DNA of 64,000 bases from the sequence record PQ724394.1; one strand, 5' to 3'. Positions 2,846 to 30,455 of the stretch are shown here, piece after piece. Source of the stretch: a phage. Within the stretch, counting starts at the first letter, position 1; each line of letters starts with the position of its first letter. The notes beneath the pieces were generated by a model. It ran no database searches. It was not told the origin of the DNA and saw only the letters and a list, made by a program, of their open reading frames with translations. Made by a program: the position numbers and the translations under genes.

Positions 2846-5800
2846 ATGTCTGTACAAGCGCCTTATGTTACTAGTCTGAGAATTGATAAGCTCTCGGCTA
2901 ACCATGTGAGCATTCTTTGGGATGACGTAGGCGCCAACTTCTATTATTTCGTAGAACTGGCCCAAACGAAGGATGCGGGTGTAGAAATTCCCGACGATAG
3001 ATTATTTTGGAGAAATTTAGGTTACACCCCTAATAACGAATGGTTTGAAGAGGCATTCATTTCTCCTAATTCATTTTATAAAATGCGAGTTGCGGTAGCT
3101 GCTCAGGGGTTTGAGCAGTCTGAGTGGGTTTACACTGAAGAATTTGAAACTTTCTCTACCAACGCATATACATTTGAGCATATGCGTGAATTCACATTGT
3201 CTAATAAATTTATTGAAGAAAAATTCACAAAAAATAATCAGAATTATGTGAACTTTAATACTGACGCCATTATGGCTTCCTTAATGACGGAAGATTTTAA
3301 CTTTACGCCGGCGTATTCGCATTTGTCATCTATATCAAATTATGTTTTAAAAGCCGACCGATTCCATGAAATCCAAGGAAGCATTCAAGCAGTTTGTAAA
3401 GACCCTAAACGTTCTATTTTAATGGAACTTGGTGGAGTTCTGTATCTTTTAGAAAGATTCCAAAGCACTGCTAAAGTTTCTAATGATAAAGGACAAAACT
3501 GGCACTATATTAGATTGTTTAACGATAGAGTGGGTAATCCGGTATCTAGAACGGCCCATTACCAAACAGAAACTACTACATACGTACTAGGTTATGACCA
3601 AATATTTTACGGGCGTAAATCAAGTGATATTAGATGGTCTGCTGATGACGTTCGCTTTAGTTCTCAGGATGTAACATTTGCTAAAATCGGTAGTGATATC
3701 GACCTTCCGTTTGAAATAGAAATATTTGGGTCATATGCAAAACTCCCATTGCCTATTTCCACTATCGCCGAAGCTATGTGTGCTTCCGACGATTTCATTT
3801 ATGTTGCGGGTAGAGACAGAGTTTATAAAGCAAAAACATCTGAGGCCCCTATAGACACTGACCCTAGCTCACCAACTTATGGCGAGAAGATATTTGAAAG
3901 CGGATATTCAACTATCACAGGGAACCCTAAAGCTGTTTGTTATAAATTAGATTCTATCCAAGGGCATACGTTTGCTTTAATTACAGGCGAAGTTAAAGAA
4001 GAAAAAATGGACCCTACAGTAGAGGCTAACGTAATTGATTCTGAATCTAAAGGTGTCTATTGGTTGGATGTAGAAACAGATACTTGGACTCGTGTATTCG
4101 GAAATACTGAAGAAGAACGTCGTCGTATAGAGCATGGATATACTAGCATGTCTACAGATGGCGAAGAGTTATTTTTCAGTTCAAGCAACTTTAGATATGA
4201 AGTGGAGGTTGATTCTGAACTTCCTTGGAAATATCCTGAAATTGTTACTTCGGCTGTTAAATACGTTAAAGACGAACAGTGGATTCATAATAAGCATTAT
4301 TTGATGATGAGCTTTAGGTCTAACTCTAAATCAGATTTTAAAGAATTTAAACCAGGTCGTATGGCTTATTATGCTGAACCATTCTTCAGTTGGTCACGTC
4401 GTGATGGAACCCGTTCTTGGATTACTACAGGTGACCATGCGATGGTTGTTTATAACGATGCTTTGTATCAGAAAGTAATCGACCTTAATAGTGGTTCATC
4501 GCCAGAACGTATTGTTCATGAGATTTGGAATAAAGGATTTTGCAAAGTTACATCCCCTAATATCGAATTTAATGGCTTTAAAAAATATTCCTCTGGTATG
4601 ATGATTCACAAATCTACAGGTGAATTAGTTGGTTATTTTGAATTCGACTATCGTGTGCGTGATGAAGTCCGTGTTATTTGGAAGCCTAAAGAAATTATGT
4701 TTACGGCAGAGCTCCAAAACCAAGAGCATGAAATTCCATGGGCCCCTAAAGAAGAGACCGGCGAACAAGACCCCGATTTGAAACCATTATTAGTCAAAAT
4801 GGTTCCCGATAGTTATTTACTCCAAGATTCCAATTTTGAAAAATTCTGCGAATATTATCTACAGTTTATTAGTGATGGTTCCGGCACTCATTATAATAAT
4901 TTGTTAAACCTTATTCGTAATCAGTATCCTCGTGAAGAAGACTCATGGGAATACCTATGGTCTGAAATTTATAAACGTAATATCTATTTGTCAAAAGAAA
5001 AACGCGACGAAGTTGTTAGATTTTTCCAAGCTCGTCAGTCTGATTTTTGGTCAACTAAAGGTACTGAAGCTTCATATAAATTCCTGTTTAAATTGCTTTA
5101 TAATGAAGATGTCGAAATTGATATCGAGTCCAAGAACTCTATCGAATATGATATCATCGTAGAATCCGACAATATCAGTGAAGATATCGTAGGCCAAACG
5201 ATTTATACTCCTACAGGAAGAAGTAATGTTACTTATATAGAACGAAATTACAAAGACGGTAAATTGCAATGGCGTTTAACCATTCACAATCTTTTAGGTC
5301 GTTTTATAGTCGGTCAGGAAATCAAATCTGAACGTACTTCATTTAAGGGTATGATTGTTCAAGGTGTTCGCGGCAAAGAGCTTTTGAGTAACAATATAGA
5401 TTATATCAACCGTAACCGTTCTTACTATGTGATGACTATTAAGTCTAATCTCCCGACCTCTCGTTATCGCAACGACGTTTTGAGATTTGTTCACCCGGTA
5501 GGTTTCGGCTTTATAGGTATAACTTTGCTTTCTATGTTTGTTAACGTTGGTTTAACACTAAAACATACAGAAACCATTATTAATATCCTTAAGAACTATA
5601 AATGGGACTCAGGTTTGCCATCTGAATGGTATGATAGAGTTGCTGTAATAGGTTTTGATGGTAATATAGAACGAGACCCTCGTACAGGTGCTCCGATGTA
5701 CAACGTTGGACCTAAAGCGGGTGAACCATTTGATATTCCTGCTGATTATGATGCAGAAAATGATTTCTCTGTATTCCAAGGTCAATTACCACACGAACGT

Positions 5801-5941
5801 ATTAAAAAGCATAGTCCATTGTTTGACCAAAGTGCTGTGACTTTTGCCAATTGGCGTGCACTGGTTGATAAGCGTCTTAAAGACGATATTGGAAATCCTA
5901 GAGACCCTAAAGTTCCAACTCAGGTAAAAATTAATGATTAA
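2846..5941 (+). CDS. 7: baseplate wedge protein gp7
   Basis: 1031 aa (T4 gp7 1032 aa); strong AAGGAG ribosome-binding site; synteny. Confidence 0.85.
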   Translation: MSVQAPYVTSLRIDKLSANHVSILWDDVGANFYYFVELAQTKDAGVEIPDDRLFWRNLGYTPNNEWFEEAFISPNSFYKMRVAVAAQGFEQSEWVYTEEFETFSTNAYTFEHMREFTLSNKFIEEKFTKNNQNYVNFNTDAIMASLMTEDFNFTPAYSHLSSISNYVLKADRFHEIQGSIQAVCKDPKRSILMELGGVLYLLERFQSTAKVSNDKGQNWHYIRLFNDRVGNPVSRTAHYQTETTTYVLGYDQIFYGRKSSDIRWSADDVRFSSQDVTFAKIGSDIDLPFEIEIFGSYAKLPLPISTIAEAMCASDDFIYVAGRDRVYKAKTSEAPIDTDPSSPTYGEKIFESGYSTITGNPKAVCYKLDSIQGHTFALITGEVKEEKMDPTVEANVIDSESKGVYWLDVETDTWTRVFGNTEEERRRIEHGYTSMSTDGEELFFSSSNFRYEVEVDSELPWKYPEIVTSAVKYVKDEQWIHNKHYLMMSFRSNSKSDFKEFKPGRMAYYAEPFFSWSRRDGTRSWITTGDHAMVVYNDALYQKVIDLNSGSSPERIVHEIWNKGFCKVTSPNIEFNGFKKYSSGMMIHKSTGELVGYFEFDYRVRDEVRVIWKPKEIMFTAELQNQEHEIPWAPKEETGEQDPDLKPLLVKMVPDSYLLQDSNFEKFCEYYLQFISDGSGTHYNNLLNLIRNQYPREEDSWEYLWSEIYKRNIYLSKEKRDEVVRFFQARQSDFWSTKGTEASYKFLFKLLYNEDVEIDIESKNSIEYDIIVESDNISEDIVGQTIYTPTGRSNVTYIERNYKDGKLQWRLTIHNLLGRFIVGQEIKSERTSFKGMIVQGVRGKELLSNNIDYINRNRSYYVMTIKSNLPTSRYRNDVLRFVHPVGFGFIGITLLSMFVNVGLTLKHTETIINILKNYKWDSGLPSEWYDRVAVIGFDGNIERDPRTGAPMYNVGPKAGEPFDIPADYDAENDFSVFQGQLPHERIKKHSPLFDQSAVTFANWRALVDKRLKDDIGNPRDPKVPTQVKIND

Positions 5942-6938
5942 TTCTACAGTAGTTTATCGTTCTATTGTTACTTCAAAATTTAGAACGGAAAAAATGTACA
6001 ACTTTTACAGAACAATAGGTGACGGTGAAGACCAGAACACTATGTATGTATCTTTCGGAAGGGCCCGACCGTGGGCCGATAACGAAAATGACCCTGGTTT
6101 TGCACCACCCTATCCTGTAGATGATTCTGAAGGCGTAGAAGACGTCTGGACCAACATGATGGGTTGTGTTAAGGTTTATAAGAGTATGCTGGATTGTGTT
6201 GTCCCACGCAAAGACTGGGGTGACACAACTTATCCTAACCCATTTACTTTCCAGATAGGTGAAATTGTAGTAGCGAATAGCCAACCACAAAACCGTACTG
6301 ATGTAGGTGCTGGGTGGATGGTTTATCGTTGTGTAGATATTCCTGAATCAGGTACATGTTCTATTTTGTCCCTTGATAATAAAACCGAGTGTATTAAACT
6401 TGGTGGCAAATGGACTTCAAATGTGCAATCGGTTAAAGCCCCGGCAGGACAAGGTGATACGGAAGGTATGGTGGATACTGGTGATGGATATCTCTGGGAA
6501 TATTTGTATGAGATTCCACCTGATGTAAGTATTAACCGATGTACTAATGAATATATTGTAGTTCCATGGCCAGAAGAAATTGCTGAGGACCCTGAACGTT
6601 GGGGATACGAGAATAACCTCACTTGGCAACAAGACGATTATGGATTAATTTACCGTATTAAAGCCAATACTATTCGCTTTAAAGCATTCTTAGATTCGGT
6701 TTATTTCCCTGAATTTAGTTTGCCCGGCAATAAAGGTTTTAGACAGCTTTCGATAATTTCTAACCCGTTAGAAGCTAAAGCCCACCCATCCGATCCGATC
6801 ATTAAAGCCGAAAAAGAGTACTATGATGTTATAGACCTCTCCCGCCACTCCGGTGAAATGATTTATATGGAAAACCGTCCTCCGGTTATTCGTTCCATGG
6901 ACCAAACAGAAGAAATTAACATTGTCTTCGAATTCTAA
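5934..6938 (+). CDS. 8: baseplate wedge protein gp8
   Basis: 334 aa, same as T4 gp8; N-terminus resembles T4 gp8 (IVTSKFRTEKM, GFAPPYP); start overlaps gene 7 end. Confidence 0.85.
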   Translation: MINSTVVYRSIVTSKFRTEKMYNFYRTIGDGEDQNTMYVSFGRARPWADNENDPGFAPPYPVDDSEGVEDVWTNMMGCVKVYKSMLDCVVPRKDWGDTTYPNPFTFQIGEIVVANSQPQNRTDVGAGWMVYRCVDIPESGTCSILSLDNKTECIKLGGKWTSNVQSVKAPAGQGDTEGMVDTGDGYLWEYLYEIPPDVSINRCTNEYIVVPWPEEIAEDPERWGYENNLTWQQDDYGLIYRIKANTIRFKAFLDSVYFPEFSLPGNKGFRQLSIISNPLEAKAHPSDPIIKAEKEYYDVIDLSRHSGEMIYMENRPPVIRSMDQTEEINIVFEF

Positions 6939-6941
6939 TAA

Positions 6942-6963
6942 GGGCCGCAAGGCCCTTTCGGGT
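6942..6963 (+). terminator. intrinsic terminator-like hairpin after gene 8
   Basis: gggcc-gcaa-ggccc stem-loop followed by tttcgggttt. Confidence 0.55.
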
Positions 6964-6999
6964 TTAATAAATACAGTATATCAATAATGAGGCATACCT

Positions 7000-7860
7000 A
7001 TGATTAAGCAAACTGGTAAAGAACTAATTGACGTCGGTGAAATTGGTAATGCCAGCACCGGCGACATTCTTTATGACGGCGGTGTTAAACTGAACACTGA
7101 CTTAAACAACATCTATAATACTTTCGGCGACCAACGTAAAACTGCTTTAACCGGTGAATTGACCGGCCAGAAATTACACGCTACAGGTTATTATCAAAAA
7201 TTTGGTGATATGGACCAAGCAAGCTCGGTTGATTTAGGCTCTTTGGTGGATATCGATGCTTCTAGCGGTTCTATCGTATTAACCACTGTAAAGGGTGCAG
7301 TTGGTGAAGGAATTGAGATTATCAACTCTAACGGAAGTATTTCATCTACCAACTATCTTGAAATCCGTATATTAGATACTTTTGCAAGTCATCCTACTTC
7401 AACCCTACGTATTGTAACACCTTATACCCGAGTTCTTTTATGGTGTGTATCGGATACAAACGGTGTTGCGGTATGGGATTATTCAATTGAAAGCATGTTT
7501 GGTGATAAACGAGTTCCATTAAATAAGACATATAATATATCTTCTGTCGCTCGTGATATTCCGGTGGTTTATTCAGGTCAGTATTCATTGGTCAAACTTT
7601 TAGTTACTGCAGTGAATGCCAACGAAACCATTTACAAAGCTTCAGAATATCTTGTGTTTATCGATAACCAAGCTAAAAAGATTTATTCCACTGAATACGC
7701 AGTTATTAAACGTGGACAAACTTCAGATGATGACGAAATTTATTCTCTAGATTTTAAATTCGATACATCAAACTATATTATCGCGACCGCTTCTTCTGTC
7801 AATCCTATGAGGCTTGCAATTAAGGTCGTAGAAACCCAAACTATTGGAGTTCCAGTATAA
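7000..7860 (+). CDS. 9: baseplate wedge / long tail fibre attachment protein gp9
   Basis: 286 aa (T4 gp9 288 aa); synteny; AGG ribosome-binding site. Confidence 0.8.
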   Translation: MIKQTGKELIDVGEIGNASTGDILYDGGVKLNTDLNNIYNTFGDQRKTALTGELTGQKLHATGYYQKFGDMDQASSVDLGSLVDIDASSGSIVLTTVKGAVGEGIEIINSNGSISSTNYLEIRILDTFASHPTSTLRIVTPYTRVLLWCVSDTNGVAVWDYSIESMFGDKRVPLNKTYNISSVARDIPVVYSGQYSLVKLLVTAVNANETIYKASEYLVFIDNQAKKIYSTEYAVIKRGQTSDDDEIYSLDFKFDTSNYIIATASSVNPMRLAIKVVETQTIGVPV

Positions 7861-9671: not shown

Positions 9672-10336
9672 TGACTTTAACTGAAATGAAAAGCGGGTTA
9701 AAATCCCGCTTAGCTGACTATTTGGAATTATCTTACACCAGTGACAAGCCTACTGCTGTTGCTGACCAACGACCTATCGGTGGCCCTTCTGCAAACCAAA
9801 CCCAGAAGGGTGTTTATTTTCCTACAGTCCAAAGTGCAATAGATGATATTGCATTTAGAACAGAGCTTCCTGTGAACTCTGTTATTATTACCACAGAAAA
9901 CAGAGCACCCGGATTTATCCAACAATCTGATAAAATTACATTTACCGGTTCTATTTCTTCAGGCGGCGAACTTGGCGACCCGGTTATTATTAAAGTGTTT
10001 GGACTTCCTGTAGAAGTCTTAGTTGGTGATTCATCTGTATTGGTTGCATCTAAAGTAAATGAGGTATTTTTAGACGCCATTGCTAATAGCTATATTTTAG
10101 CCGAAACATCTATTGACGCCTTAGACCAATCTACCTTGAATATTAAATACAATGACTATCAGAATCATATTTTTTCACCATATAAACAATCGGGTTGTAC
10201 AATTTCCCATACTATAGTCCAGCAGCCAAGGGCCGGATATGGTAAGTGGGAATACTTAGGTAACTCTACCCAATCGTTAGCAGGTGGTACAGTTAACGGC
10301 ACGATTCCTTTATATTACTATAAGAGATTATATTAA
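9671..10336 (+). CDS. 11: baseplate wedge protein gp11
   Basis: 221 aa (T4 gp11 219 aa); start overlaps gene 10 stop. Confidence 0.8.
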   Translation: MTLTEMKSGLKSRLADYLELSYTSDKPTAVADQRPIGGPSANQTQKGVYFPTVQSAIDDIAFRTELPVNSVIITTENRAPGFIQQSDKITFTGSISSGGELGDPVIIKVFGLPVEVLVGDSSVLVASKVNEVFLDAIANSYILAETSIDALDQSTLNIKYNDYQNHIFSPYKQSGCTISHTIVQQPRAGYGKWEYLGNSTQSLAGGTVNGTIPLYYYKRLY

Positions 10337-11862
10337 TGTCAACAAACACACTAAAACACATTAGTGATAAATCGGAATTCAAATCATTCGACCCTACTGG
10401 GTCGAATTTCCCGCCTGATATTACTAATGTTCAAGAAGCATTGGCGGCTATTTCATTAATCGGTGTCACAGGTAATGTTCCTTCAGCCACAGAAACATCC
10501 CAAGGTATTATTCGTCTTGCCACAACACAAGAAGTAATGGATGGGTTGGATGCCTATAGTGCAGTGACTCCGGCAACTTTAAAAGCACGTTTAGATATTC
10601 CTACTCAGGCAACAGAAACTTATGTAGGTATTACCCGTTATGCTACTAACGCTGAAGCTATAGCAGGCACAGAGCCCCAGGCTGCAATCGTAGCAACCTC
10701 TTTGAAAGCGGTAATGGATTATACATTTGAGAACCGTTTATCAACAGAGAACACTACAGGCGTTATCAAGATTTCAACTACGCCTGCTGCATTAGCTGGT
10801 ACCGATGATACCACAGCAATGACCCCACTTAAAGTATCTCAAGCAATTGGTGCGGCCACAGCAGCGTTACCGGTTTATTCTACGGCAACGACCACAAATG
10901 AAGGTTTGGTTCGTTTAGCTACTAATGCTGAAGTTGGCAATGGAAGTCTTTCGGTAGGTATTGCTATTTCTCCAGCCGGATTAGCCACATTAACTTCCAC
11001 CGAAGCCAGAAGTGGTATTATTAAACTCGCAGGTTGGGATATGGTATCTAATGGTACTGACCATACTGCTGCTGTTACTCCGGCATCTTTGCTAGCTCGT
11101 ACAGGTAATACAGGACGAATTGGCTTGGTGCGTTTAACTACTACAGTAGGACAAGGCGATGGTAATACGGCCCTGGCTTATAATGCTAACGTTATTTCTA
11201 CTTCAGGTGGTGAAATATGGGGTACTTTAAACGTTAATGGCGCATTACGTCGTAATGGTGTTGATGTTGTTACCCACGACCAATTATCAGATAGCGTTCC
11301 GGTAGGTACTATTTGTATGTGGGGTGGACATGAAGGTAATATCCCAGGCAAATGGCGAGCTTGTGTAGGTGGGACTTATACTGGTGGTGCATATTTAAAT
11401 GCTGTTGGCGGACGTTGGGGATGGTGGGGTGCTATTCCGGATTTCCGTGGATTATATCCTCGCGGTGCCAACATGGTTGGTGGATATTCTGAAGGTGAAG
11501 TTAACCCGCATATTGCCGGTAACCGAGGAGAAGACGGTAAAGGTAAAGCCCGTTTAGGTAACGGTGTAGGTTCGTTCCCACAATCTTCTGTTCAAGCCCA
11601 AGCATTACGTTATCATAAACACGCCGGTGGTTTTGGTGAACATGATAACTATGGTGCTTTTGGTAACACCGCTAACTCTGGGTATGTTGGTACTCGTAAA
11701 GGCCTTGACTGGGATAACCGTAGTTATTATACTAACGAAGGGTTTGAGACCACCGAACCTTGGAACCGTGATGGCCATACCACACTGAATAGTGAAGGAC
11801 TTATTGCAAATGAAACACGTCCTTGGACAATGTCCGTTCTTTTTATTATTAAAGTAGAATAA
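10336..11862 (+). CDS. 12: short tail fibre protein gp12
   Basis: 508 aa (T4 gp12 527 aa); repetitive Ala/Thr-rich shaft followed by a Gly/Trp-rich C-terminal domain; synteny. Confidence 0.8.
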   Translation: MSTNTLKHISDKSEFKSFDPTGSNFPPDITNVQEALAAISLIGVTGNVPSATETSQGIIRLATTQEVMDGLDAYSAVTPATLKARLDIPTQATETYVGITRYATNAEAIAGTEPQAAIVATSLKAVMDYTFENRLSTENTTGVIKISTTPAALAGTDDTTAMTPLKVSQAIGAATAALPVYSTATTTNEGLVRLATNAEVGNGSLSVGIAISPAGLATLTSTEARSGIIKLAGWDMVSNGTDHTAAVTPASLLARTGNTGRIGLVRLTTTVGQGDGNTALAYNANVISTSGGEIWGTLNVNGALRRNGVDVVTHDQLSDSVPVGTICMWGGHEGNIPGKWRACVGGTYTGGAYLNAVGGRWGWWGAIPDFRGLYPRGANMVGGYSEGEVNPHIAGNRGEDGKGKARLGNGVGSFPQSSVQAQALRYHKHAGGFGEHDNYGAFGNTANSGYVGTRKGLDWDNRSYYTNEGFETTEPWNRDGHTTLNSEGLIANETRPWTMSVLFIIKVE

Positions 11863-11871
11863 GGGTAAAAA

Positions 11872-14406
11872 ATGATTAACAAATTGGAACTTAGTGAGTT
11901 ACCATTTGTTGACGGCGTACCTGATGCTCCTCAAAAGCGTATCCAATGGATACGCGAGGGTGATTGTATGTCTGCAGCAAAAACAAAATACGGCAATGAA
12001 GGTAATTTGAACGCTGCTGCTTTAGGAGTTCAGAAAAACGTAGAAGCTCTTGATGCCAACGATTTAAAAACTGCTGATAAAGTTAATGAGCTTATAGAAA
12101 ACGTTAATAATATCAATGACGCTTTAGAAATGTCAACAGATATTTCCATCATTCAACAAATAGAGAAAAACCGTGTTGATATTGTAGACCTTAAAAAAGT
12201 CACCGAAGATACAACAGAAAAATTGGACACCTTAACAACCAATTTTGATTTCTTGCGTGAAGATGTTGGATATCATGACCCTTTACAAGATGGGCCTTAT
12301 TTAACTGTACGTGAAAATATTGTTCTTCTTAAAAATGAAATTGGTCACTATGAGGACCAGGATATAAACGGTAATCCTTTACCTCCAGGTGAAACTAGTG
12401 AAGCCACTGGTATAAAACGCCGCATCATGGATAATACCACTGAATTGGTGGACCATCGTCTTCGTATTGATACCCTTGAAAGAAACTATGAAGATTCTGA
12501 TGTTGGGCAATTAGGTATTAAACTAAATGAAATTCGTGCCGAATTAGGACCACATTCTGATACGGTAGGTAAACAACCCGCTTACACCCGAATTTCAGTA
12601 TTAGAAACGGCTGCAGTTAATTTTAATACGGCTATTGACGAAATTAAGGATAATATTGATTTCTCTGGTATGCCTATAAAGGACCGAGTAACTACTTTAG
12701 AAAGCAAAACCTTTACCTTAGAAAATTCAGTTAACGTTGATTTAAAACCTAGAGTAACTTCTATAGAAACTCAAATCGGTTCTGAGTCTGCACCAGCATC
12801 TATTAATGGACGTTTAAGTGGGCTTCGTACCGATGTAAATGATTTAAAAACCGTTGTTGGTAATAGTTCTAGTGAAGGACTTCGTTTCCAGGTTTCCGAT
12901 ATTAATCGACGCCTTGGTAGTGAAGTGTCTCCTGCCGCTGGCACTATTAATAAGCGTTTGAATGATGTTATTATTCAAGCAAACCAATCTACCTCGTCCA
13001 TCCAGGATATTCAGGTAGAAATTGGTAACAACCAATCCGGTATAAAAGGTACTTTGCTTAAGCTCACAAATAAGGTTGACGGAACGAACCCTAACGGAGC
13101 TACCGTAGAAGAACGTGGTCTTATTAATGCGGTTACTTCTTTAGAAACCCAGATGCAAGGTAAATTAGGTGACGCGCCTTCTGATGGTAAACTCTATGCA
13201 CGTCGAAATGCGGCATGGGATGAAGTTGTTAATAATTCCACAGAAATAGAAACCGTTAAAGCCGATTTGGTTGTTACCAATGGTAAAGTGACCGCTTTAA
13301 CTTCCAGAGTAGATGATAATGATACTTCTATTTCATCTCTTAATACTCGCACTACTGCTCTAAATACTTCGGTTGGTGAGATTAAAGCCGATATAGTTTC
13401 TATAAAGGCTAAAGATGTTGAACAGGACGGTCGTTTAACTTCTTTGGAAGAGGCTGATGTTACTATTAACGGTAAAATTGCTGCTCTCGAAACTAAGACA
13501 GATACCACTGATGATGATGTCACAGCACTGGCTTTAGACGTTTCTTCTTTAGAGAACCAATTGACTCCTATAAAAGCCGATATTACCAAAAACAAAGGTG
13601 ATATTGTTGCCTTAACCGGTCGAGTGGCTTCTACTGAAGGCGAAATTACCGCAATTAAAGTTGATACAGCCAAAATTGCTCCTTTGACTACTAGAGTTAC
13701 TACGGCAGAAGGTAAAATCACTACTTTAGAAACAGGGCTTGCCGCTGTTAAAGTCGAATCCGATAAGGTAGCAGGTATTAATACCCGTTTAGGTACGGCA
13801 GAAGATGACATCGGAACACTTGAAACGGGTTTGGCTGAAGTTAAGGGTGAAGCCGATAAAGTAGCTGCTATAGATACCCGTTTGGGTGTTGTTGAAGCTG
13901 AAGTTGGTAAAGTAGCTTCTATAGATACCCGTTTAGGCGATGTTGAAGCTGAAGTCGGTACTCTTGAAACAGATTTATCTACTGTTAAAGGTAAAGTTGG
14001 TACTCTTGAAACAGGTTTGGCTGCCGTTAAAGTCGAATCCGATAAGGTAGCAGGTATTAATACCCGTTTAGGTACGGCAGAAGGTAAAATAACTACCCTT
14101 GAGTCTGGCTTGGCTGCTGTTGAAGTTGAATCAGATAAAGTAGCAGGGATTGATACCCGTTTAGCTACTGTTGAAGGCGAAGTTAGTACTCTTGAAACAG
14201 GTTTAGCTGCTGTTAAAGTTGAATCTGATAAAGTTGCTGACTTAGGAACCCGTTTAACCGCTGCCGAAGGTAAAATTACGGCCTTAGAAACAGAATTATC
14301 TAAACGTCCACCGGTGGCTCCTGCCGCAGACGGACTTCCGTATGTTCTGGTTGATAACGCATGGGTATTATTGTCTGATTTTGTGACTTTAAACTCAGCA
14401 CCATAA
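11872..14406 (+). CDS. wac: fibritin (whisker antigen control), expanded 844-aa form with C-terminal foldon
   Basis: N-terminus LPFVDG motif as in T4 fibritin; long coiled-coil with tandem repeats; C-terminal foldon-like LPYVLVDNAWVLLSDF; T4 fibritin is 487 aa. Confidence 0.8.
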   Translation: MINKLELSELPFVDGVPDAPQKRIQWIREGDCMSAAKTKYGNEGNLNAAALGVQKNVEALDANDLKTADKVNELIENVNNINDALEMSTDISIIQQIEKNRVDIVDLKKVTEDTTEKLDTLTTNFDFLREDVGYHDPLQDGPYLTVRENIVLLKNEIGHYEDQDINGNPLPPGETSEATGIKRRIMDNTTELVDHRLRIDTLERNYEDSDVGQLGIKLNEIRAELGPHSDTVGKQPAYTRISVLETAAVNFNTAIDEIKDNIDFSGMPIKDRVTTLESKTFTLENSVNVDLKPRVTSIETQIGSESAPASINGRLSGLRTDVNDLKTVVGNSSSEGLRFQVSDINRRLGSEVSPAAGTINKRLNDVIIQANQSTSSIQDIQVEIGNNQSGIKGTLLKLTNKVDGTNPNGATVEERGLINAVTSLETQMQGKLGDAPSDGKLYARRNAAWDEVVNNSTEIETVKADLVVTNGKVTALTSRVDDNDTSISSLNTRTTALNTSVGEIKADIVSIKAKDVEQDGRLTSLEEADVTINGKIAALETKTDTTDDDVTALALDVSSLENQLTPIKADITKNKGDIVALTGRVASTEGEITAIKVDTAKIAPLTTRVTTAEGKITTLETGLAAVKVESDKVAGINTRLGTAEDDIGTLETGLAEVKGEADKVAAIDTRLGVVEAEVGKVASIDTRLGDVEAEVGTLETDLSTVKGKVGTLETGLAAVKVESDKVAGINTRLGTAEGKITTLESGLAAVEVESDKVAGIDTRLATVEGEVSTLETGLAAVKVESDKVADLGTRLTAAEGKITALETELSKRPPVAPAADGLPYVLVDNAWVLLSDFVTLNSAP
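13669..14300 (+). repeat. tandem ~90-nt coiled-coil repeat units inside wac
   Basis: Near-identical DNA blocks, e.g. 13725-13800 versus 14005-14080 (gttaaagtcgaatccgataaggtagcaggtattaatacccgtttaggtacggcagaag); protein repeats TLETGLAAVKVESDKVAGINTRLGTAEGKIT. Confidence 0.8.
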
Positions 14407-14410
14407 TAAA

Positions 14411-14429
14411 AGGGCTTCGGCCCTTTTTT
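14411..14429 (+). terminator. intrinsic terminator after wac
   Basis: agggc-ttcg-gccct UUCG hairpin followed by a run of six T. Confidence 0.7.
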
Positions 14430-14431
14430 GC

Positions 14432-14439
14432 TATAAATA
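14432..14439 (+). promoter_or_regulatory. T4-type late promoter (TATAAATA) for gene 13
   Basis: Exact TATAAATA about 21 nt upstream of the gene 13 ATG. Confidence 0.6.
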
Positions 14440-14460
14440 CGGTTATTAGAGGAATAAAAC

Positions 14461-15396
14461 ATGGCAAGTGAATCATATAACCCTAAGCAACTCAAGGACG
14501 CTATTCTGCGCCGCCTGGGTGCACCGATTACAAATATTGAAGTAACTACTGACCAAGTGTATGATTGCATCCAGAGGGCCTTAGAGCTCTACGGCGAATA
14601 CCATTATAACGGGTATAACAAAGGTTATCAGGCTTTTTATATCGGCCATGACGATGAAGAAAAATTCCGTAATGGTGTATTCGACCTTAAAGGACGTAAT
14701 ATATTTGCAGTAACACAAATTTTGAGAACTAACGTTGGTTCTTTAACATCTATGGATGGGCAAGCAACTTATCCATGGTTTACAGATTTTGTACTAGGTT
14801 TGGCAGGTATTAATGGTGGCCTTGGGTCTTCATGTAATAGTTTTGGACCTAATGCCTTCGGCGCCGACCTTGGTTATTTCACACAATTAATGCAATATCG
14901 TTCTATGATGCAAGACCTTTTGGTTCCTCTGCCTGATTATTGGTATAATGATGCCACTGAACAATTAAAGGTAATGGGCAACTTTGTTAAAGGCGACTTT
15001 ATTGTAATTGAAGTTTATACCCGTTCATTTAATGGTGTTGATTCCATGGTTGGGAATACAGCAGGATATGGATATGCTTCTGGTGGCTGTGACGAAAATG
15101 AATGGAGCCCTGGGGCTATTTGGGACAATCCTGCACGTCGAATTTCAGGAATGAGAGCTGGTGAGGACCTTGGACTACAAGATGGGGCGTATAATAACCG
15201 TTGGGTCAAAGATTACGCTACAGCATTAGTTAAAGAGGTCAATGGTAATATTTTAGCCAAACACCAAGGTATGCAATTAGCTGGCGGAACCACTGTAGAT
15301 GGCATTCGATTGATTGAAGAAGCTCGTTTAGAAAAAGAACGTCTTCGCGAAGAATTAGATTTGCTCGACCCACCAACACCTATTTTAATTGGATAA
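14461..15396 (+). CDS. 13: neck protein gp13
   Basis: 311 aa (T4 gp13 309 aa); synteny; GAGG ribosome-binding site. Confidence 0.8.
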
Positions 15397-25077: not shown

Positions 25078-25893
25078 ATGCTTAAAGAACAACTGATCGC
25101 CGAAGCACAGAATATTGATGCTTCCGTTGCTCTTGACAGTATTTTCGAATCAGTTAATATTTCTCCGGAAGCAAAAGAAACTTTCGGCACTGTATTCGAA
25201 GCTACCGTCAAGCAACATGCCGTTAAACTGGCTGAATCTCACATCGCTAAAATCGCTGAAAAAGCGGAAGAAGAAGTTGAGAAAAATAAAGAAGAAGCTG
25301 AAGAAAAAGCTGATAAGAAAATCCAAGAAGCTGCCGGTCGTTTCCTTGACCATGTTGCTAAAGAATGGATGGCTGAAAACCAGCTGGCTGTTGATAAAGG
25401 TATTAAAGCCGAACTGTTCGAATCCATGTTGATGGGTATGAAAGAACTGTTTGTTGAACATAACGTGGTTGTTCCAGAAGAAGCAGTAGACGTTGTCGCT
25501 GAAATGGAAGAAGAATTGGCTGAACAGAAAGCTGAAACCGCTCGTTTGTTCGAAGAAGTTGGCAAGCGTGACGCATATATTAATTACGTACAGCGTGAAC
25601 AAGCTGTTATGGAAGCAACTAAAGACCTGACTGAATCTCAGAAAGAAAAAGTTAGTTCTCTGGTAGAAGGCATGGATTATTCCGATGCATTTGGTAAAAA
25701 AATTGGCGCTATCGTTGAAATGGTTAAAGGCCAGACTGACGTTGAAAAACCAATCACCGAAGCCGCTATAAATAAAACTGAAGACGATGCTGCAGCACTG
25801 AATTACATTTCGGAAGCAGTTGAAGAAAAAGGCGCTAAGCCTACCCTGTCCTTCGCGGACCTGTCTGCAATCGCAGCATCTCGAATTTCTTAA
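25078..25893 (+). CDS. 22: prohead scaffolding core protein gp22
   Basis: 271 aa, Glu/Lys/Ala-rich coiled-coil; T4 gp22 269 aa; synteny. Confidence 0.85.
   Translation: MLKEQLIAEAQNIDASVALDSIFESVNISPEAKETFGTVFEATVKQHAVKLAESHIAKIAEKAEEEVEKNKEEAEEKADKKIQEAAGRFLDHVAKEWMAENQLAVDKGIKAELFESMLMGMKELFVEHNVVVPEEAVDVVAEMEEELAEQKAETARLFEEVGKRDAYINYVQREQAVMEATKDLTESQKEKVSSLVEGMDYSDAFGKKIGAIVEMVKGQTDVEKPITEAAINKTEDDAAALNYISEAVEEKGAKPTLSFADLSAIAASRIS
25767..25774 (+). promoter_or_regulatory. candidate late promoter for gene 23 located inside the 3' end of gene 22
   Basis: Exact TATAAATA about 140 nt upstream of the gene 23 ATG; no TATAAATA in the short 22-23 intergenic spacer. Confidence 0.35.
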
Positions 25894-25914
25894 TTTAATA
25901 AGGTTATACAACAC

Positions 25915-27474
25915 ATGAAAAAGAATGCATTAGTTCAAAAATGGTCCGCTCTGCTGGAAAACGAAGCTCTTCCTGAAATCGTTGGTGCTTCTAAACAAGC
26001 TATCATCGCTAAAATTTTCGAAAACCAGGAACAAGACATCCTGACTGCTCCGGAATACCGTGACGAAAAAATCTCTGAAGCATTTGGTTCTTTCCTGACC
26101 GAAGCTGAAATCGGTGGTGACCATGGTTATGATGCTACCAATATTGCAGCGGGCCAGACCTCTGGTGCTGTAACTCAGATTGGGCCGGCAGTAATGGGTA
26201 TGGTTCGTCGTGCTATTCCTCATCTGATTGCTTTTGATATTTGTGGTGTTCAGCCTCTGAATAACCCTACCGGCCAGGTATTTGCACTGCGTGCAGTATA
26301 TGGTAAAGACCCTATCGCTGCAGGCGCTAAAGAAGCTTTCCATCCGATGTATGCTCCGAATGCTATGTTCTCTGGTCAGGGCGCTGCTCAGACTTTTGAA
26401 GCACTGGCTGCAGGTAAAGTTCTGGAAGTTGGTAAAATTTATTCTCACTTCTTCGAATCTACCGGTTCTGCACACTTCCAGGCTGTTGAAGCCGTAACCG
26501 TTGATGCTGCTGCTACCGATGCTGCTAAACTGGATGTTGCCGTAACTGCTCTGTTGGAAGCTGGCCAGCTGGCTGAATTGGCTGAAGGTATGGCTACTTC
26601 TATCGCTGAACTTCAGGAAGGCTTTAACGGTTCTCAGGACAACCCGTGGAACGAAATGGGCTTCCGTATCGATAAACAAGTTATCGAAGCTAAATCCCGT
26701 CAGCTGAAAGCAAGCTATTCCATCGAACTGGCACAGGACCTTCGTGCAGTACACGGTATGGATGCAGATGCTGAACTGTCCGGTATCCTTGCTACCGAAA
26801 TTATGCTCGAAATCAACCGTGAAGTTATCGATTGGATTAACTACTCTGCACAGGTTGGTAAATCTGGTATGACCAACACCGTTGGCGCTAAAGCTGGTGT
26901 GTTTGACTTCCAGGACCCGATTGATATCCGTGGTGCTCGTTGGGCCGGTGAGAGCTTTAAAGCCCTTCTGTTCCAGATTGATAAAGAAGCAGCCGAAATC
27001 GCTCGTCAGACCGGTCGTGGTGCTGGTAACTTCATCATCGCTTCCCGTAACGTAGTTAACGTACTGGCTGCAGTTGATACTTCTGTAAGTTATGCAGCTC
27101 AAGGTCTGGGTCAGGGTTTCAACGTTGACACAACCAAAGCAGTATTTGCCGGTGTTCTTGGTGGTAAATATCGTGTTTACATCGACCAGTATGCTCGTTC
27201 CGATTACTTCACCATCGGTTATAAAGGTTCCAACGAAATGGACGCAGGTATCTACTATGCTCCGTACGTTGCACTGACTCCGCTGCGTGGTTCCGATCCG
27301 AAGAACTTCCAACCGGTAATGGGCTTCAAAACTCGTTACGGTATCGGTATTAACCCGTTCGCTGACCCAGCTGCTCAGGCACCTACCAAACGTATTCAGA
27401 ATGGTATGCCGGACATCGTTAACAGCCTTGGTCTGAATGGTTACTTTAGACGTGTATATGTGAAAGGTATCTAA
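25915..27474 (+). CDS. 23: major capsid protein gp23
   Basis: 519 aa (T4 gp23 521 aa); strongly biased codon usage and Ala/Gly-rich sequence typical of a highly expressed capsid protein; synteny. Confidence 0.95.
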   Translation: MKKNALVQKWSALLENEALPEIVGASKQAIIAKIFENQEQDILTAPEYRDEKISEAFGSFLTEAEIGGDHGYDATNIAAGQTSGAVTQIGPAVMGMVRRAIPHLIAFDICGVQPLNNPTGQVFALRAVYGKDPIAAGAKEAFHPMYAPNAMFSGQGAAQTFEALAAGKVLEVGKIYSHFFESTGSAHFQAVEAVTVDAAATDAAKLDVAVTALLEAGQLAELAEGMATSIAELQEGFNGSQDNPWNEMGFRIDKQVIEAKSRQLKASYSIELAQDLRAVHGMDADAELSGILATEIMLEINREVIDWINYSAQVGKSGMTNTVGAKAGVFDFQDPIDIRGARWAGESFKALLFQIDKEAAEIARQTGRGAGNFIIASRNVVNVLAAVDTSVSYAAQGLGQGFNVDTTKAVFAGVLGGKYRVYIDQYARSDYFTIGYKGSNEMDAGIYYAPYVALTPLRGSDPKNFQPVMGFKTRYGIGINPFADPAAQAPTKRIQNGMPDIVNSLGLNGYFRRVYVKGI

Positions 27475-27891: not shown

Positions 27892-29175
27892 ATGGCAAAG
27901 ATTAACGAATTACTGCGCGAGTCAACAACTACTACCAGCAACTCATTGGGTCGCCCTAATCTTGTTGCTTTGACCCGTGCTACCACTAAACTAATTTATC
28001 GCGATATCATCGCTGAACAACGTACTAGTCAGCCTATTGCTGCATTGTATGGTGTCAAATATCTTACCCCTGATAATGAATTTAGTTTCCAAACTGGTGC
28101 TGTTTATGGTGGTGAAGTTGGTTCTAAAGACCGTGAAACTATCCCAGAACTCACAGATAAAGCCCAGGCGATTGCCAAGGGTGACTACTTTAAGTATCAG
28201 AATGTGGTTTATAAGGCTCTTCAAGCAAGCCCACTCGCATCCACTAGCGCTACAGAATTGGCTGATGCTCTTCAAGAAGGTTTGGTGTCATTAACGTGTC
28301 GTTTGGTTCCTGATGCGGCGCATACCACTAAATTCGAAGCGAGTGATGTAGAAATCTCTGATGCTGTATTCCAGGTTAATAAATGGAATGCTCCTGTTAA
28401 GACCCGTAAATTGAAGACTGCTTTGACCGTAGAATTAGCACAGGATATGGAATCAAATGGCTTTGACGCCCCTGCGTTCTTAGAAGACCTCCTGGCTACG
28501 GTAATGGCAGATGAAATTAATAAAGACGTTCTACAATCTCTAATAACCGTATCTAAACGCTATAAAGTTACGGGCGTATCTGATAATGGTATTATTGATT
28601 TGACTTATGATAGTGCTCCGGAATCTGCACGTAAACTTTATGAAATTGTGTGTGAGATGAATTCTGAAATCCAGAAAACTACTTCTTATTCTGGTACGTT
28701 TGTTGTGGCTTCAAGTCGTGTGGCTGCAATGCTTGCAGGTTCTGGCTGGTTAAAACATAGACCTGAAGATAATAATTGGCTCCCGGAAACTGCCTATGGT
28801 TATTTGTTGAATGGATTACCTCTGTTCTGTGACGTTAACAGCCCATTGGATTATGTTATCGTAGGTGTTAAAGAGAATTATGGCGGAAATGAAGTCGTAG
28901 GCTCAATTTTCTATGCCCCGTATACAGAAGGCTTGGATTTAGACGACCCAGAACACGTCGGTGCTTATAAGGTTATTGTCGACCCGGATTCATTACAGCC
29001 TTCTATTTCTCTGATGGTTCGTTATGCACTGTCCGCTAACCCGTACACCGTAGCTAAAGACGATAAAGAAGCTCGTGTTATCGATGCAACCAATATGGAT
29101 TTAATGGCTGGTCAGAGTAATATGTCCTATCTGCTCGGTGTTAAACTTCCAGCAATTATTTACGAGGCTGATTAA
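27892..29175 (+). CDS. 24: capsid vertex protein gp24 (copy 1, T4-orthologous)
   Basis: 427 aa, same as T4 gp24; N-terminus MAKINELLRESTTT as in T4 gp24. Confidence 0.85.
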   Translation: MAKINELLRESTTTTSNSLGRPNLVALTRATTKLIYRDIIAEQRTSQPIAALYGVKYLTPDNEFSFQTGAVYGGEVGSKDRETIPELTDKAQAIAKGDYFKYQNVVYKALQASPLASTSATELADALQEGLVSLTCRLVPDAAHTTKFEASDVEISDAVFQVNKWNAPVKTRKLKTALTVELAQDMESNGFDAPAFLEDLLATVMADEINKDVLQSLITVSKRYKVTGVSDNGIIDLTYDSAPESARKLYEIVCEMNSEIQKTTSYSGTFVVASSRVAAMLAGSGWLKHRPEDNNWLPETAYGYLLNGLPLFCDVNSPLDYVIVGVKENYGGNEVVGSIFYAPYTEGLDLDDPEHVGAYKVIVDPDSLQPSISLMVRYALSANPYTVAKDDKEARVIDATNMDLMAGQSNMSYLLGVKLPAIIYEAD

Positions 29176-30455
29176 TGTCTAAGATTATAGACCTAATTAA
29201 AGAATCCACATTGACGGCTGCCAACTCGGTTGGCCGTCCTGCTCTTCTTTCATACACCCAAGCAACTAATAAACGAATCTTTAAAGCCCTAGTTGCTGAA
29301 CAAAAAACAAGCCAACCTGTTGCCGCTCTGTACGGGGTTCGTGTACTTAATCCTGACGACAAAATGACTTATCTTGGTGGCGCTACATTTGCAGGCCAGA
29401 TTGGTATGTCGGAACGTGAAAATATTCCTGAATTTACCGATTCGTCTACAGCTTATGCAGCCGGCGATATGTTCCAGTTTGAAAGTGTAGTGTTTAAAGT
29501 TCTAGAAGCATCTCCTTTCGCCGGAACCACAGAAACCGACCTAGGTGAAGTTATTTCTGAAGCAGTGGCAGCCGGACATATTCGTATGGTATCAGATGCT
29601 GCTATTACTTCTAAATTCGAACAAGGTCATCCCGAAATTGCTGAAGCAGGCTTCCGTATTGACAAATGGCAATCTGAAGTTAAATCACGTAAACTGAAAA
29701 CTTCATTGACAGTCGAATTAGCCCAAGACCTAGAATCAAACGGGTTTAATGCTCCTAATTTCATTGAAAATCTGCTAGGCATTCAAATGGCAGAAGAAAT
29801 TAATAAGGACGTATTACAGTCATTAATTACGGTGAGTTCTCGTTTTAAAGTCCAGGGTGTTTCTGAAAAGGGTGTATTAGACCTTACCAACCCACGTTAC
29901 GATAATGCCCAGGACCGTGCTCGTACATTATATTATTACATGTGTGAGATGAACTCTGCCGTCCAACGTCAAACTTCTTTCGCTGGGACTTATGCAGTAG
30001 CTAGTTCTCGTTGTGCTGCTATTCTCGCCGCTTCCGGTTGGGTTGAGAAAAAGGAAGACCAAGACGAACTGGCTTATGGTGTATTAAAGAATGGTCTGCC
30101 TCTTTATGCCGATATGAATAGTCCGTGTGATTATGTTATTGTTGGTGTAAATGCTCAGATGGGTGAAGGACAGACGGTCGCATCTTTATATTATGCGCCT
30201 TATACGGAAGGTTTGGATGTGGTTGATGAAGAAGGTGATACTTCAGTAGGTGAATTTAAGGTTATTGTTGACCCGGAAAGCTTACAACCTACAGTAGCAT
30301 TGCTTGCTCGTTATGCATTGACTGCAAACCCTTATACCGTCGCTAAGGACGATAAAGAAGCCCGCATTATTGATGGTTCTGATATGGACAAAATGGCTAA
30401 CCAAAGCCAGTTGAGTTCTTATCTTGGTGTTAAACTTCCACCTTTAGAAAAATAA
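29175..30455 (+). CDS. capsid vertex protein gp24 paralogue (copy 2, divergent)
   Basis: 426 aa, collinear with copy 1 at roughly 55-60 percent identity by eye; TAATG overlap with copy 1 stop. Confidence 0.8.
   Translation: MSKIIDLIKESTLTAANSVGRPALLSYTQATNKRIFKALVAEQKTSQPVAALYGVRVLNPDDKMTYLGGATFAGQIGMSERENIPEFTDSSTAYAAGDMFQFESVVFKVLEASPFAGTTETDLGEVISEAVAAGHIRMVSDAAITSKFEQGHPEIAEAGFRIDKWQSEVKSRKLKTSLTVELAQDLESNGFNAPNFIENLLGIQMAEEINKDVLQSLITVSSRFKVQGVSEKGVLDLTNPRYDNAQDRARTLYYYMCEMNSAVQRQTSFAGTYAVASSRCAAILAASGWVEKKEDQDELAYGVLKNGLPLYADMNSPCDYVIVGVNAQMGEGQTVASLYYAPYTEGLDVVDEEGDTSVGEFKVIVDPESLQPTVALLARYALTANPYTVAKDDKEARIIDGSDMDKMANQSQLSSYLGVKLPPLEK

Follow-up and report, generated by a model that had tools for sequence, protein, structure and literature searches.

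The window analysed here is a 64,000-nucleotide stretch of phage DNA (sequence record PQ724394.1), in which an open reading frame at 11872..14406 on the plus strand, the strand on which all features lie unless stated otherwise, encodes a protein of 844 aa. This ORF is flanked by gp12 (10336-11862) and gp13 (14461-15396), it shares 94-96% identity at the DNA level with wac of JS98, EcWhh-1 and NC-G, and the gp12-wac-gp13 order is the same in 10 annotated Dhakavirus records; gp13 follows wac directly, without an intervening chaperone gene. The product of 11872-14406 is the fibritin (Wac), which forms the neck whisker, of a Dhakavirus (JS98-group) T4-type coliphage. A first-pass annotation, made from the sequence alone, had placed an 844-aa wac at this position and had described it as about 350 aa longer than T4 fibritin; the ORF and its gp12 and gp13 flanks bear out the former statement, and the excess is 357 aa (844 vs. 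487 aa). Downstream of wac, a terminator-like hairpin (AAAGGGC-UUCG-GCCCUUU, then a U run; 14408..14430) was read from the sequence, with an RNA folding energy of -11.1 kcal/mol (z = -3.3); a pattern scanner run over 11500-14800 did not list this hairpin. A pattern search placed a T4-type late promoter box for gp13 (TATAAATA) at 14432..14439, 22 nt upstream of the gp13 ATG at 14461.

The first half of the protein (aa 5-428; 11884..13155) comprises a T4-homologous N-terminal neck-attachment domain and segmented coiled-coil shaft. By phmmer, these residues align to residues 4-430 of T4 fibritin 2bsg_A with E = 7.7e-73 (3j2o_A also gave ~1e-72), confirming the T4-like N-terminus recognized previously. 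Within the N-terminal domain, both full-length 2bsg and the N-terminal T4 fragments 1ox3 and 2ibl (E ~1e-13 for the fragments) could be aligned with aa 5-68, and P11, P17, Q21, R23, I24 and W26 are invariant across 35 fibritins. Homology of the shaft to T4 covers aa 69-428, and DSSP assignment of the AF2 model yields 13 predicted helices with loops between them at aa 45-433; this model represents a monomer and is of modest confidence (mean pLDDT 67.6, pTM 0.20).

Two T4-like foldon motifs, starting at aa 438 and 820, were identified in this one polypeptide, and a motif scan was run on 50 homologues. The internal foldon-like motif (aa 435-452, APSDGKLYARRNAAWDEV; 13174..13227), a hairpin that the first-pass annotation missed, is supported by Pfam, by AF2 and by homologues. 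Pfam Fibritin_C (PF07921) matches aa 371-454 (profile positions 2-92 of 93, E = 5e-28) and hence maps onto the inner motif rather than onto the C-terminus, AF2 predicts a beta-hairpin at 442-445/448-451, and the motif starts at residue 438 or 439 in all 17 Dhakavirus-type homologues considered (16 database proteins and IME341), 16 of which have it at 438. The C-terminal foldon-like motif (aa 816-838, APAADGLPYVLVDNAWVLLSDFV; 14317..14385), which had been noted before, was recovered as the second phmmer domain against the T4 foldon and as an AF2-predicted beta-hairpin at 824-827/830-833. Between its sequence DGLPYVLVDNAWVLLSDFV and the T4 foldon DGQAYVRKDGEWVLLSTFL, 11 of 19 positions match; on its own, this short stretch scores weakly in HMMER (1avy, E = 0.04). 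Among 35 fibritins, conservation is at least 90% at A816, P817, D820, G821, Y824, V825, D828, W831, V832, L834 and S835. JS98-type fibritin was described by Letarov & Krisch 2013 (PMC3797505), with reference to Latypov et al. 2007, as having two foldon motifs, of which the inner motif is the first, with a variable coiled-coil spacer, and foldon-driven trimerisation of JS98 fibritin has been reported biochemically (PMC3797505).

The spacer between the foldons is ~355 aa long, and its predicted structure is alpha-helical, with the hydrophobic repeat of a coiled coil. Its 5' part (aa 456-600; 13237..13671) is a non-repeated coiled coil with AF2 helices at 456-541 and 558-592, which every long relative retains and which is deleted from the 529-aa forms; in this part, autocorrelation gives only weak signals, at lags that are multiples of 21 nt (z 3.3-4.8). 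When the 31-aa unit that makes up the remainder was used as an HMM, nothing significant was found in aa 458-600 or in T4 fibritin (best independent E ~0.01, Z = 1), and we do not claim that the whole spacer was built from one module, as this HMM detected no degenerate copies in aa 458-600.

The 3' 60% of the spacer is a tandem module array (aa 601-812, 212 aa; 13672..14307), which was delineated by a module parse, the HMM, TRF, autocorrelation and AF2. It consists of seven A modules (17 aa, i.e., two heptads plus three residues), six B modules (14 aa, i.e., two heptads) and a truncated B (Bt), which follow one another as A B A B A A B B A B A B A Bt; either module can also occur singly. TRF reports a period of 93 nt with sub-periods of 51 and 42, and autocorrelation over 13700-14300 gives z = 14.0, 11.4 and 13.5 at lags 93, 186 and 279, respectively, as compared to a maximum of ~4 in 200 codon shuffles, while domain matches to the 31-aa-unit HMM (E 1e-8 to 1e-22) are confined to the array span. 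Modules share 51-90% DNA identity, the 31-aa units are ~74% identical in protein (hand count of three unit pairs), and the block B1-A2-B2-A3 recurs as B4-A5-B5-A6 with 71-86% identity. An exhaustive diagonal search for exact repeats of at least 25 nt identified one pair, which is 58 nt long and offset by 279 nt (3 x 93); copy 1 (13747..13804) runs from the 3' end of B1 into the 5' part of A2, and copy 2 (14026..14083) from the 3' end of B4 into the 5' part of A5. Coiled-coil character was assessed by hydrophobic-moment periodicity together with AF2 secondary structure; the hydrophobic period is 3.45 residues (31/9), and AF2 predicts a single unbroken helix at 603-809 (block pLDDT ~61-83). Two trimeric coiled-coil fibres, P22 gp26 (E 3.6e-6) and reovirus sigma-1, were matched weakly by phmmer. 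With a period of 31 residues, each A module would introduce either a discontinuity of 3 residues (stammer) or a small loop.

These data support the tandem periodicity and coiled-coil character expected from the first-pass annotation, and they modify its description of the repeats. While a tandem 93-nt period is indeed present, the "five or more nearly identical ~30-aa units" are A/B composites of diverged modules, and the exact repeats longer than 55 nt amount to the single 58-nt pair. Similarly, the array does lengthen the protein, but it contributes 212 of the 357 residues in excess of T4 (~59%), the rest being the internal foldon-like hairpin and ~145 aa of non-repeated coiled coil.

Comparison with 16 relatives identified 11 distinct wac lengths, ranging from 515 to 827 aa and differing mostly by whole 14- or 17-aa modules, in agreement with the link between repeats and length variation that had been suggested previously. 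The 844-aa window allele is the longest found. Relatives carry the same A/B module family in other numbers and orders, with arrays of 195, 167, 136, 119, 105, 102, 88 or 0 aa, as compared to 212 aa in the window. As the inner motif remains at 438-439 over wac lengths of 515-844 aa, it is the inter-foldon spacing that varies. Modules at the edges of the window array (A1, B1, B6, A7 and Bt) are identical to, or 1-2 nt different from, those of JS98/JS10, whereas the inner modules are 2-14 nt away from their closest counterparts among all relatives; A2, A4, B3, A5, B5 and A6 represent variants not found in any relative. In a protein-guided IMG/VR scan, nine loci were recovered, including one (L024) from a lineage in which a different part of the spacer has been amplified, and a fibritin from a distant lineage (P0050) carries three foldon-like motifs; together, L024 and P0050 suggest independent expansions.

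With regard to mechanism, unequal homologous recombination or replication slippage between modules may lead to the gain or loss of whole modules. Each such change would shift the core positions by either 0 or 3 residues, and the reading frame and a continuous hydrophobic seam would hence be kept; with both kept, the trimer could still zip between the two foldons, so that variants would survive. The inner foldon and the T4-equivalent part would hold a fixed distance from the neck, and the outcome would be a whisker of variable length, to which the window array, the largest seen so far, might add ~310 Å, for a total of about twice the T4 whisker. Divergence of 10-49% among copies indicates that the expansions are not very recent or that they have been overwritten by exchange between alleles. 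Overall, we consider it highly probable that the window encodes a JS98-type fibritin in which a T4-like N-terminus and shaft are followed by an inner foldon, a helical spacer with an A/B array and a second foldon, and in which module gain and loss produce variable whisker length. This layout and its length variation have already been described for the JS98 group (PMC3797505); the window allele is the longest so far.

Two alternative explanations question what the repeats represent. A 458-aa antisense ORF (minus strand, 13194..14570) might be a real overlapping gene for the sake of which the repeats are maintained; it is long, it has an ATG start, and long ORFs occupy this frame in relatives as well. 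A stop in this frame can arise only where a codon ending in T or C precedes a sense Tyr codon, or where a codon ending in T precedes a His or Gln codon. Spacer residues 458-812 include no Tyr, no His and two Gln, neither of which follows a T-ending codon, and the long antisense ORF exists because the spacer lacks Tyr and His and nearly lacks Gln. The ORF terminates exactly at Tyr442, its length follows that of the spacer, from 149 aa in KIT01 up to 458-464 aa in the window, and it is cut short by premature stops in NC-G and VR5; among relatives, its intactness was not found to be independent of sense composition. Its product is of low complexity (rich in Ser, Thr, Ala, Val and Pro), the ORF overlaps the wac terminator as well as the late promoter and the start of gp13, and promoter-like matches in 11500-14800 are no more frequent than in shuffles (12 vs. 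8.6 +/- 3.9). An overlapping gene is thus exceedingly improbable; judged by codon composition, the antisense ORF is a by-product and not a gene, as the first-pass annotation had supposed in calling it spurious. It is also very improbable that the window array is an assembly artefact in which short-read mis-joining within repeats made a gene of the JS98-like (751 aa) or JS10-like (799 aa) form appear longer than it is. Assembly errors classically occur in repeat arrays, the exact 844-aa protein had no match among ~15 billion public proteins, and exact searches with the window-specific modules A4 and B3 returned 0 matches in IMG/VR, as did a search of JGI metagenomes with B3. However, the sole exact repeat of at least 25 nt is, at 58 nt, below ordinary read length, the reading frame is intact, and independent records reach 827 aa with other module orders. 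In addition, the inserted modules differ both from their neighbours and from those of every relative, which counts against an artefact since a mis-join would give identical copies rather than new variants.

A different question is whether array length, once real, is under selection or reflects neutral copy-number drift. Selection on length, either as an adjustable ruler for the reach of the distal foldon along the retracted long tail fibre (in retraction, sensing or assembly) or with the distal part serving as an extra surface sensor or adhesin, appears unlikely to us. That array length is a selected and quickly adjustable ruler, in which module number tunes how far the distal foldon reaches along or beyond the fibre and hence the sensitivity of the environmental "fibres up / fibres down" switch that the whisker controls, with the window isolate at the extreme, we regard as quite unlikely. 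Module sizes that preserve the coiled-coil core phase, strict conservation of both foldons around a variable spacer, and the apparently independent expansions in L024 and P0050 are consistent with a ruler, as is the contact that the C-terminus of T4 fibritin makes with the long tail fibre near the knee (PMC3797505). By contrast, the long-tail-fibre subunits gp34, gp35, gp36 and gp37 are near-constant in length (1322-1349, 373, 215 and 1080-1108 aa, respectively) in KIT01, JS98 and JS10, which have wac products of 529, 751 and 799 aa; fibre and wac lengths do not co-vary in these three relatives, which argues against a tight functional length match. Array-less forms (Bp7, QL01, KIT01 and others) are also common and viable.

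Our results provide a module grammar, in which A (17 aa) and B (14 aa) each fit the coiled-coil core phase, for a length polymorphism that had been noted only generally, and they indicate that wac length is poorly suited to the typing of Dhakavirus phages and that annotators should treat the 458-aa antisense ORF as a composition artefact. The natural series of arrays from 0 to 212 aa within structural gene blocks that are 97-99% identical represents a ready allelic set for studies on the effects of whisker length on fibre retraction and assembly. The double-foldon layout may also be of interest in protein engineering, where the foldon serves as a trimerisation tag.

Among known fibritins, the Wac proteins of JS98 (AAU29287.1, 751 aa) and JS10 (799 aa) are encoded by the same gene in the same place and share the two foldon-like motifs and the A/B module family. 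By BLASTP, JS98 Wac is 94% identical in protein over the aligned parts only (89% of the query) and JS10 Wac 90%, and DNA identity to JS98 wac is 97.7-100% in the first 1800 nt; the window protein is longer than these by 93 aa (six modules) and 45 aa, respectively. Our literature search found nothing on Dhakavirus fibritin and, on JS98/JS10 wac, nothing beyond PMC3797505. The short Dhakavirus fibritins (529 aa in Bp7, QL01, KIT01 and others; 515 aa in fDHCT2) have the same N-terminal 457 aa, inner foldon, and terminal A/Bt plus foldon, but lack the 145-aa unique spacer part and the array; the sequence of their junction (...ALTSRV|TAAEDKITALETEL...) suggests that two A-like segments were joined by a deletion. 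T4 fibritin (gpwac, 487 aa; PDB 2bsg, 3j2o, 1aa0, 1avy) has a homologous N-terminal domain and shaft and shares with the window the C-terminal foldon motif DGxxYVxxDxxWVLLSxF, the position between genes 12 and 13, and a terminator 3' of the gene; it has one foldon and no spacer, whereas the window protein has an extra foldon-like hairpin at the T4-equivalent position followed by ~355 aa of coiled coil. T4 is the wrong baseline for length, because all JS98-group fibritins carry the two-foldon extension, the variable spacer of which has been published (PMC3797505).

More generally, T4-like fibritins vary between lineages in length and in their C-terminal region by gain and loss of modules, and the extensions of the Aeh1 type (~2x T4 length, chaperone-dependent) and the RB43 type (one to three Ig-like domains) are unrelated in sequence and stand in place of the foldon (PMC3797505). 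By contrast, the extension of the window fibritin is a coiled coil with a foldon on either side, and its gene is followed directly by gp13 instead of a chaperone gene. Outside phages, streptococcal M proteins are size-variable coiled-coil fibres in which in-frame tandem repeats give rise to length variants by recombination. The window array may resemble these proteins by analogy, with the difference that M proteins are dimers on the bacterial surface and are subject to immune selection, while Wac would form a trimeric phage whisker.

The wac gene, which encodes fibritin, the neck whisker protein, lies at 11872-14406 (+) as an ORF of 844 aa, as the first-pass annotation had placed it, between homologues of gp12 (508 aa; 10336-11862) and gp13 (311 aa; 14461-15396), the latter followed by gp14. 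By megablast, the gene belongs to Dhakavirus (the JS98 group within the Tevenvirinae), and genes annotated as wac in EcWhh-1, JS98, and NC-G match it best, at 94-96 % identity. The exact 844-aa protein is absent from a collection of ~15 billion proteins; the nearest clusters are those of JS10 Wac (799 aa), which matches along the full length at 90 % identity, and of the 751-aa Wac of JS98. Across the flanks of wac (11.9 kb and 21.5 kb), the partial record of Ec2-ASingh shares 97-99 % identity with the window, and other close records (e.g., JS10, JS98, and dhabil) do not exceed 98.7 % upstream or 96.7 % downstream; none of the records compared is identical to these flanks. The C-terminal part of gp12 (short tail fibre) carries a 27-nt tandem repeat (11626-11681 (+); 2.1 copies, 80 % match). 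In the window, gp13, gp14, and gp15 are directly adjacent (15396/15399 and 16172/16209) with no extra gene next to gp14; among relatives that do have one, a putative endonuclease separates gp13 from gp14 in MX01 (5656-6282 of locus L007), gp14 is followed by a homing (mob-like) endonuclease in KIT01 (from 5866 of locus L010), and gp14 and gp15 flank a gene for a hypothetical protein in ABTNLsp5 (6439-7026 of locus L006).

The proposed T4-like N-terminus was confirmed, with aa 5-428 aligning to residues 4-430 of T4 fibritin (PDB 2bsg_A, 487 aa; E = 7.7e-73). The Pfam model that includes the foldon, Fibritin_C (PF07921), aligns with aa 371-454 through positions 2-92 of its 93 (E = 5e-28), an internal rather than a C-terminal location. 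The inner motif APSDGKLYARRNAAWDEV (aa 435-452) shares the T4 foldon's DG-x2-Y-x6-W spacing, and a second copy, DGLPYVLVDNAWVLLSDF (aa 820-837), which accounts for the foldon-like C-terminus noted at first pass, is nearer to the T4 foldon than the inner motif. An AlphaFold2 monomer model built from a 35-sequence alignment, of modest confidence (mean pLDDT 67.6, pTM 0.20), predicts 13 helices with intervening loops up to residue 433, a β-hairpin at 442-445/448-451, helices at 456-541 and 558-592 with a 4-residue helical turn at 550-553, a single unbroken helix at 603-809, and a second β-hairpin at 824-827/830-833. The Pfam match, the motifs, and the predicted secondary structure therefore point to a T4-like fibritin that closes with a foldon-like hairpin and is extended by ~355 aa of predicted helix and then a second foldon. 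A distant metagenomic fibritin homologue (P0050; 1016 aa, 32 % identity) has three foldon-like motifs, DGEYYARRDGVW, DGKMYGRKDGVW, and DGAKYTRMNGKW, at residues 684, 850, and 979.

The repeat features of wac are far beyond chance. Autocorrelation over 13700-14300, compared with 200 codon shuffles (largest z ~4), gave 62 %, 60 %, and 67 % identity at lags of 93, 186, and 279 nt (z = 14.0, 11.4, and 13.5, respectively), bearing out the suspected tandem periodicity; the N-terminal 1.3 kb of wac showed none above shuffle noise. Tandem Repeats Finder reported a 93-nt period (3.3 copies, 13974-14278) with overlapping 51-nt and 42-nt periods, and a gap-free repeat finder five 210-nt copies spaced 93/93/186/93 nt. 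The array, at aa 601-812 (13672-14307 (+)), parses into 17-aa A modules (consensus KVAGIxTRLGTxEGxIx) and 14-aa B modules (consensus TLETGLAAVKVESD) arranged as A B A B A A B B A B A B A; a truncated B (ALETELSKR) then completes the array and runs into the foldon. A plus B gives the 31-aa (93-nt) period, and the A-A and B-B junctions explain the 51-nt and 42-nt periods. The ~30-aa units of the first-pass annotation thus hold as to period, but they are not nearly identical, as modules of the same type share only 51-90 % DNA identity. Likewise, exact repeats longer than 55 nt had been described in the plural, but an exhaustive search for exact repeats of at least 25 nt found a single pair (58 nt; 13747-13804 and 14026-14083, offset 279 nt); this pair and the lag-279 signal arise because the block B1-A2-B2-A3 recurs as B4-A5-B5-A6 (71-86 % identity). 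An HMM of the 31-aa unit matched the array span alone (E from 1e-8 to 1e-22); neither aa 458-600 nor a T4-type fibritin (P0049, 487 aa) gave a significant match. Tandem units also account for only part of the added length: the array contributes 212 aa (59 %) of the 357-aa excess over T4 fibritin, and the rest comes from the region of the inner hairpin and from ~145 aa of helix without repeats.

Hydrophobic residues in the inter-foldon spacer recur every 3.45 residues (31/9), with core positions at 2, 5, 9, 12, 16, 19, 23, and 26 of each 31-aa unit and one near the B/A border. From these positions, B is exactly two heptads, and A has three residues on top of two heptads, so that the a/d core positions swap yet stay in phase. 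Each A module may therefore introduce a stammer-like discontinuity or a small bulge, between which a monomer model cannot decide. Weak phmmer matches to two trimeric coiled-coil fibres, P22 gp26 and reovirus sigma-1 (E 3.6e-6 and 6e-4, respectively), are in keeping with the spacer's composition.

Translation of wac from 12 phage records, supplemented with proteins from database searches and IMG/VR, showed lengths of 515 aa (fDHCT2), 529 aa (KIT01, Bp7, and QL01 type), 720 aa (MX01, ABTNLsp5, IME540, and dhabil), 734 aa (UP19), 737 aa (vB_EcoM_005), 751 aa (JS98 and NC-G), 768 aa (EcWhh-1 and VR5), 799 aa (JS10 and IME341), and 827 aa (Ec2-ASingh and Esco_phi_B-01), against 844 aa in the window. 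The anticipated repeat-linked length variation is thus present, mostly in steps of whole modules. In 17 Dhakavirus-type homologues (16 database proteins and IME341), the start of the inner foldon motif falls at residue 438-439 (438 in 16), and length differences among the homologues compared are confined to the stretch between the foldons. Arrays, including that of the window, measure 0, 88, 102, 105, 119, 136, 167, 195, or 212 aa and differ by whole A and/or B modules except in the two 827-aa alleles. These two, both on the minus strand (L011 and L012), have irregular junctions, in which seven residues are duplicated (TAEGKIT-TAEGKIT), an A module is truncated (10 aa), and the segment VKVDTAKIAPLTTRVT is duplicated anew, and recombination therefore seems not to have been confined to module borders. 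JS98 wac has six modules fewer than the window, whose extra modules A4 B3 B4 A5 B5 A6 amount to 93 aa. Because the outer modules are 0-2 nt from those of JS98/JS10 and the inner ones 2-14 nt from their closest counterparts among the relatives, the array reads as a mosaic with allele-specific variants rather than a fresh perfect duplication. A 722-aa fibritin (49 % identity; 3501-5669 of L024, a 171,541-bp IMG/VR contig) has a different part of the spacer amplified, as ~3 tandem copies of a ~21-22-aa unit (EITAIKLDTAKIAPLTxRVxxxE), which suggests an independent expansion in another T-even lineage.

A long array could also be produced by misassembly. This is unlikely here, since there is a single long exact repeat (58 nt), the added modules are unlike both their neighbours and those of all relatives, the reading frame is intact, and lengths up to 827 aa already occur in independent records. 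The observed pattern is the one that would be expected if diverged tandem modules underwent unequal homologous recombination or slippage, which is plausible in a T4-type phage, where replication depends on recombination. Every product would remain in frame, the hydrophobic seam would be kept because modules are 14 or 17 residues long, and the two conserved foldons could still set the register at both ends. A coiled coil rises ~1.5 Å per residue, at which the array would add ~310 Å and the whole spacer would span ~530 Å, roughly the length of an entire T4 whisker.

In KIT01, JS98, and JS10, where Wac measures 529, 751, and 799 aa, the long-tail-fibre subunits are nearly constant (gp34, 1339, 1349, and 1322 aa; gp35 and gp36, 373 and 215 aa in each phage; gp37, 1108, 1080, and 1103 aa), and fibritins without an array are common among isolates; both observations argue for relaxed constraint on spacer length and against a matched ruler, although the distal foldon could conceivably have a tuning role.

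The 458-aa antisense ORF (13194-14570 (-)) was rightly regarded as spurious and is a by-product of composition. For a stop to arise in its frame, the sense strand must have T or C as the last base of the codon before a Tyr codon, or T as the last base of the codon before a His or Gln codon. Tyr and His are absent from residues 458-812, which include two Gln, neither after a T-ending codon, and Tyr442 of the inner foldon marks the exact end of the ORF. Its stop-to-stop length tracks spacer length, from 149 aa (KIT01) to 464 aa (window), and the frame is shortened to 320 aa in NC-G and 312 aa in VR5. It spans the gp13 start, a T4-type late promoter box (TATAAATA; 14432-14439 (+), 22 nt before that start), and a hairpin terminator after wac (14408-14430 (+); GC-rich, UUCG loop, U run; -11.1 kcal/mol, z = -3.3) that a generic terminator scan did not pick up. 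Two further long antisense ORFs, 25930-27312 (-) (460 aa) and 25150-25914 (-) (254 aa), lie within sense ORFs of 519 aa (25915-27474 (+)) and 271 aa (25078-25893 (+)), which by gene order are probably gp23 and gp22; by analogy with wac, both are probably compositional artefacts. Downstream of gp23, two neighbouring gp24-like (capsid vertex) genes (27892-29175 and 29175-30455 (+); 427 and 426 aa, 57 % identical) form a tandem paralogue pair.

Fibritin of the JS98 type, with two foldon motifs parted by a coiled coil of varying length, has already been described by Letarov & Krisch 2013 (PMC3797505), where JS98 fibritin is reported to fold into trimers by means of its foldon motifs alone, and where Latypov et al. 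2007 is cited for length differences among JS98-like phages. No independent copy of the 844-aa allele was found in the public protein and sequence collections searched, and the window's wac is a new allele, the longest found of this type. It does not represent a new kind of feature; rather, the A/B module grammar and the length survey refine the published picture of JS98-type fibritin.
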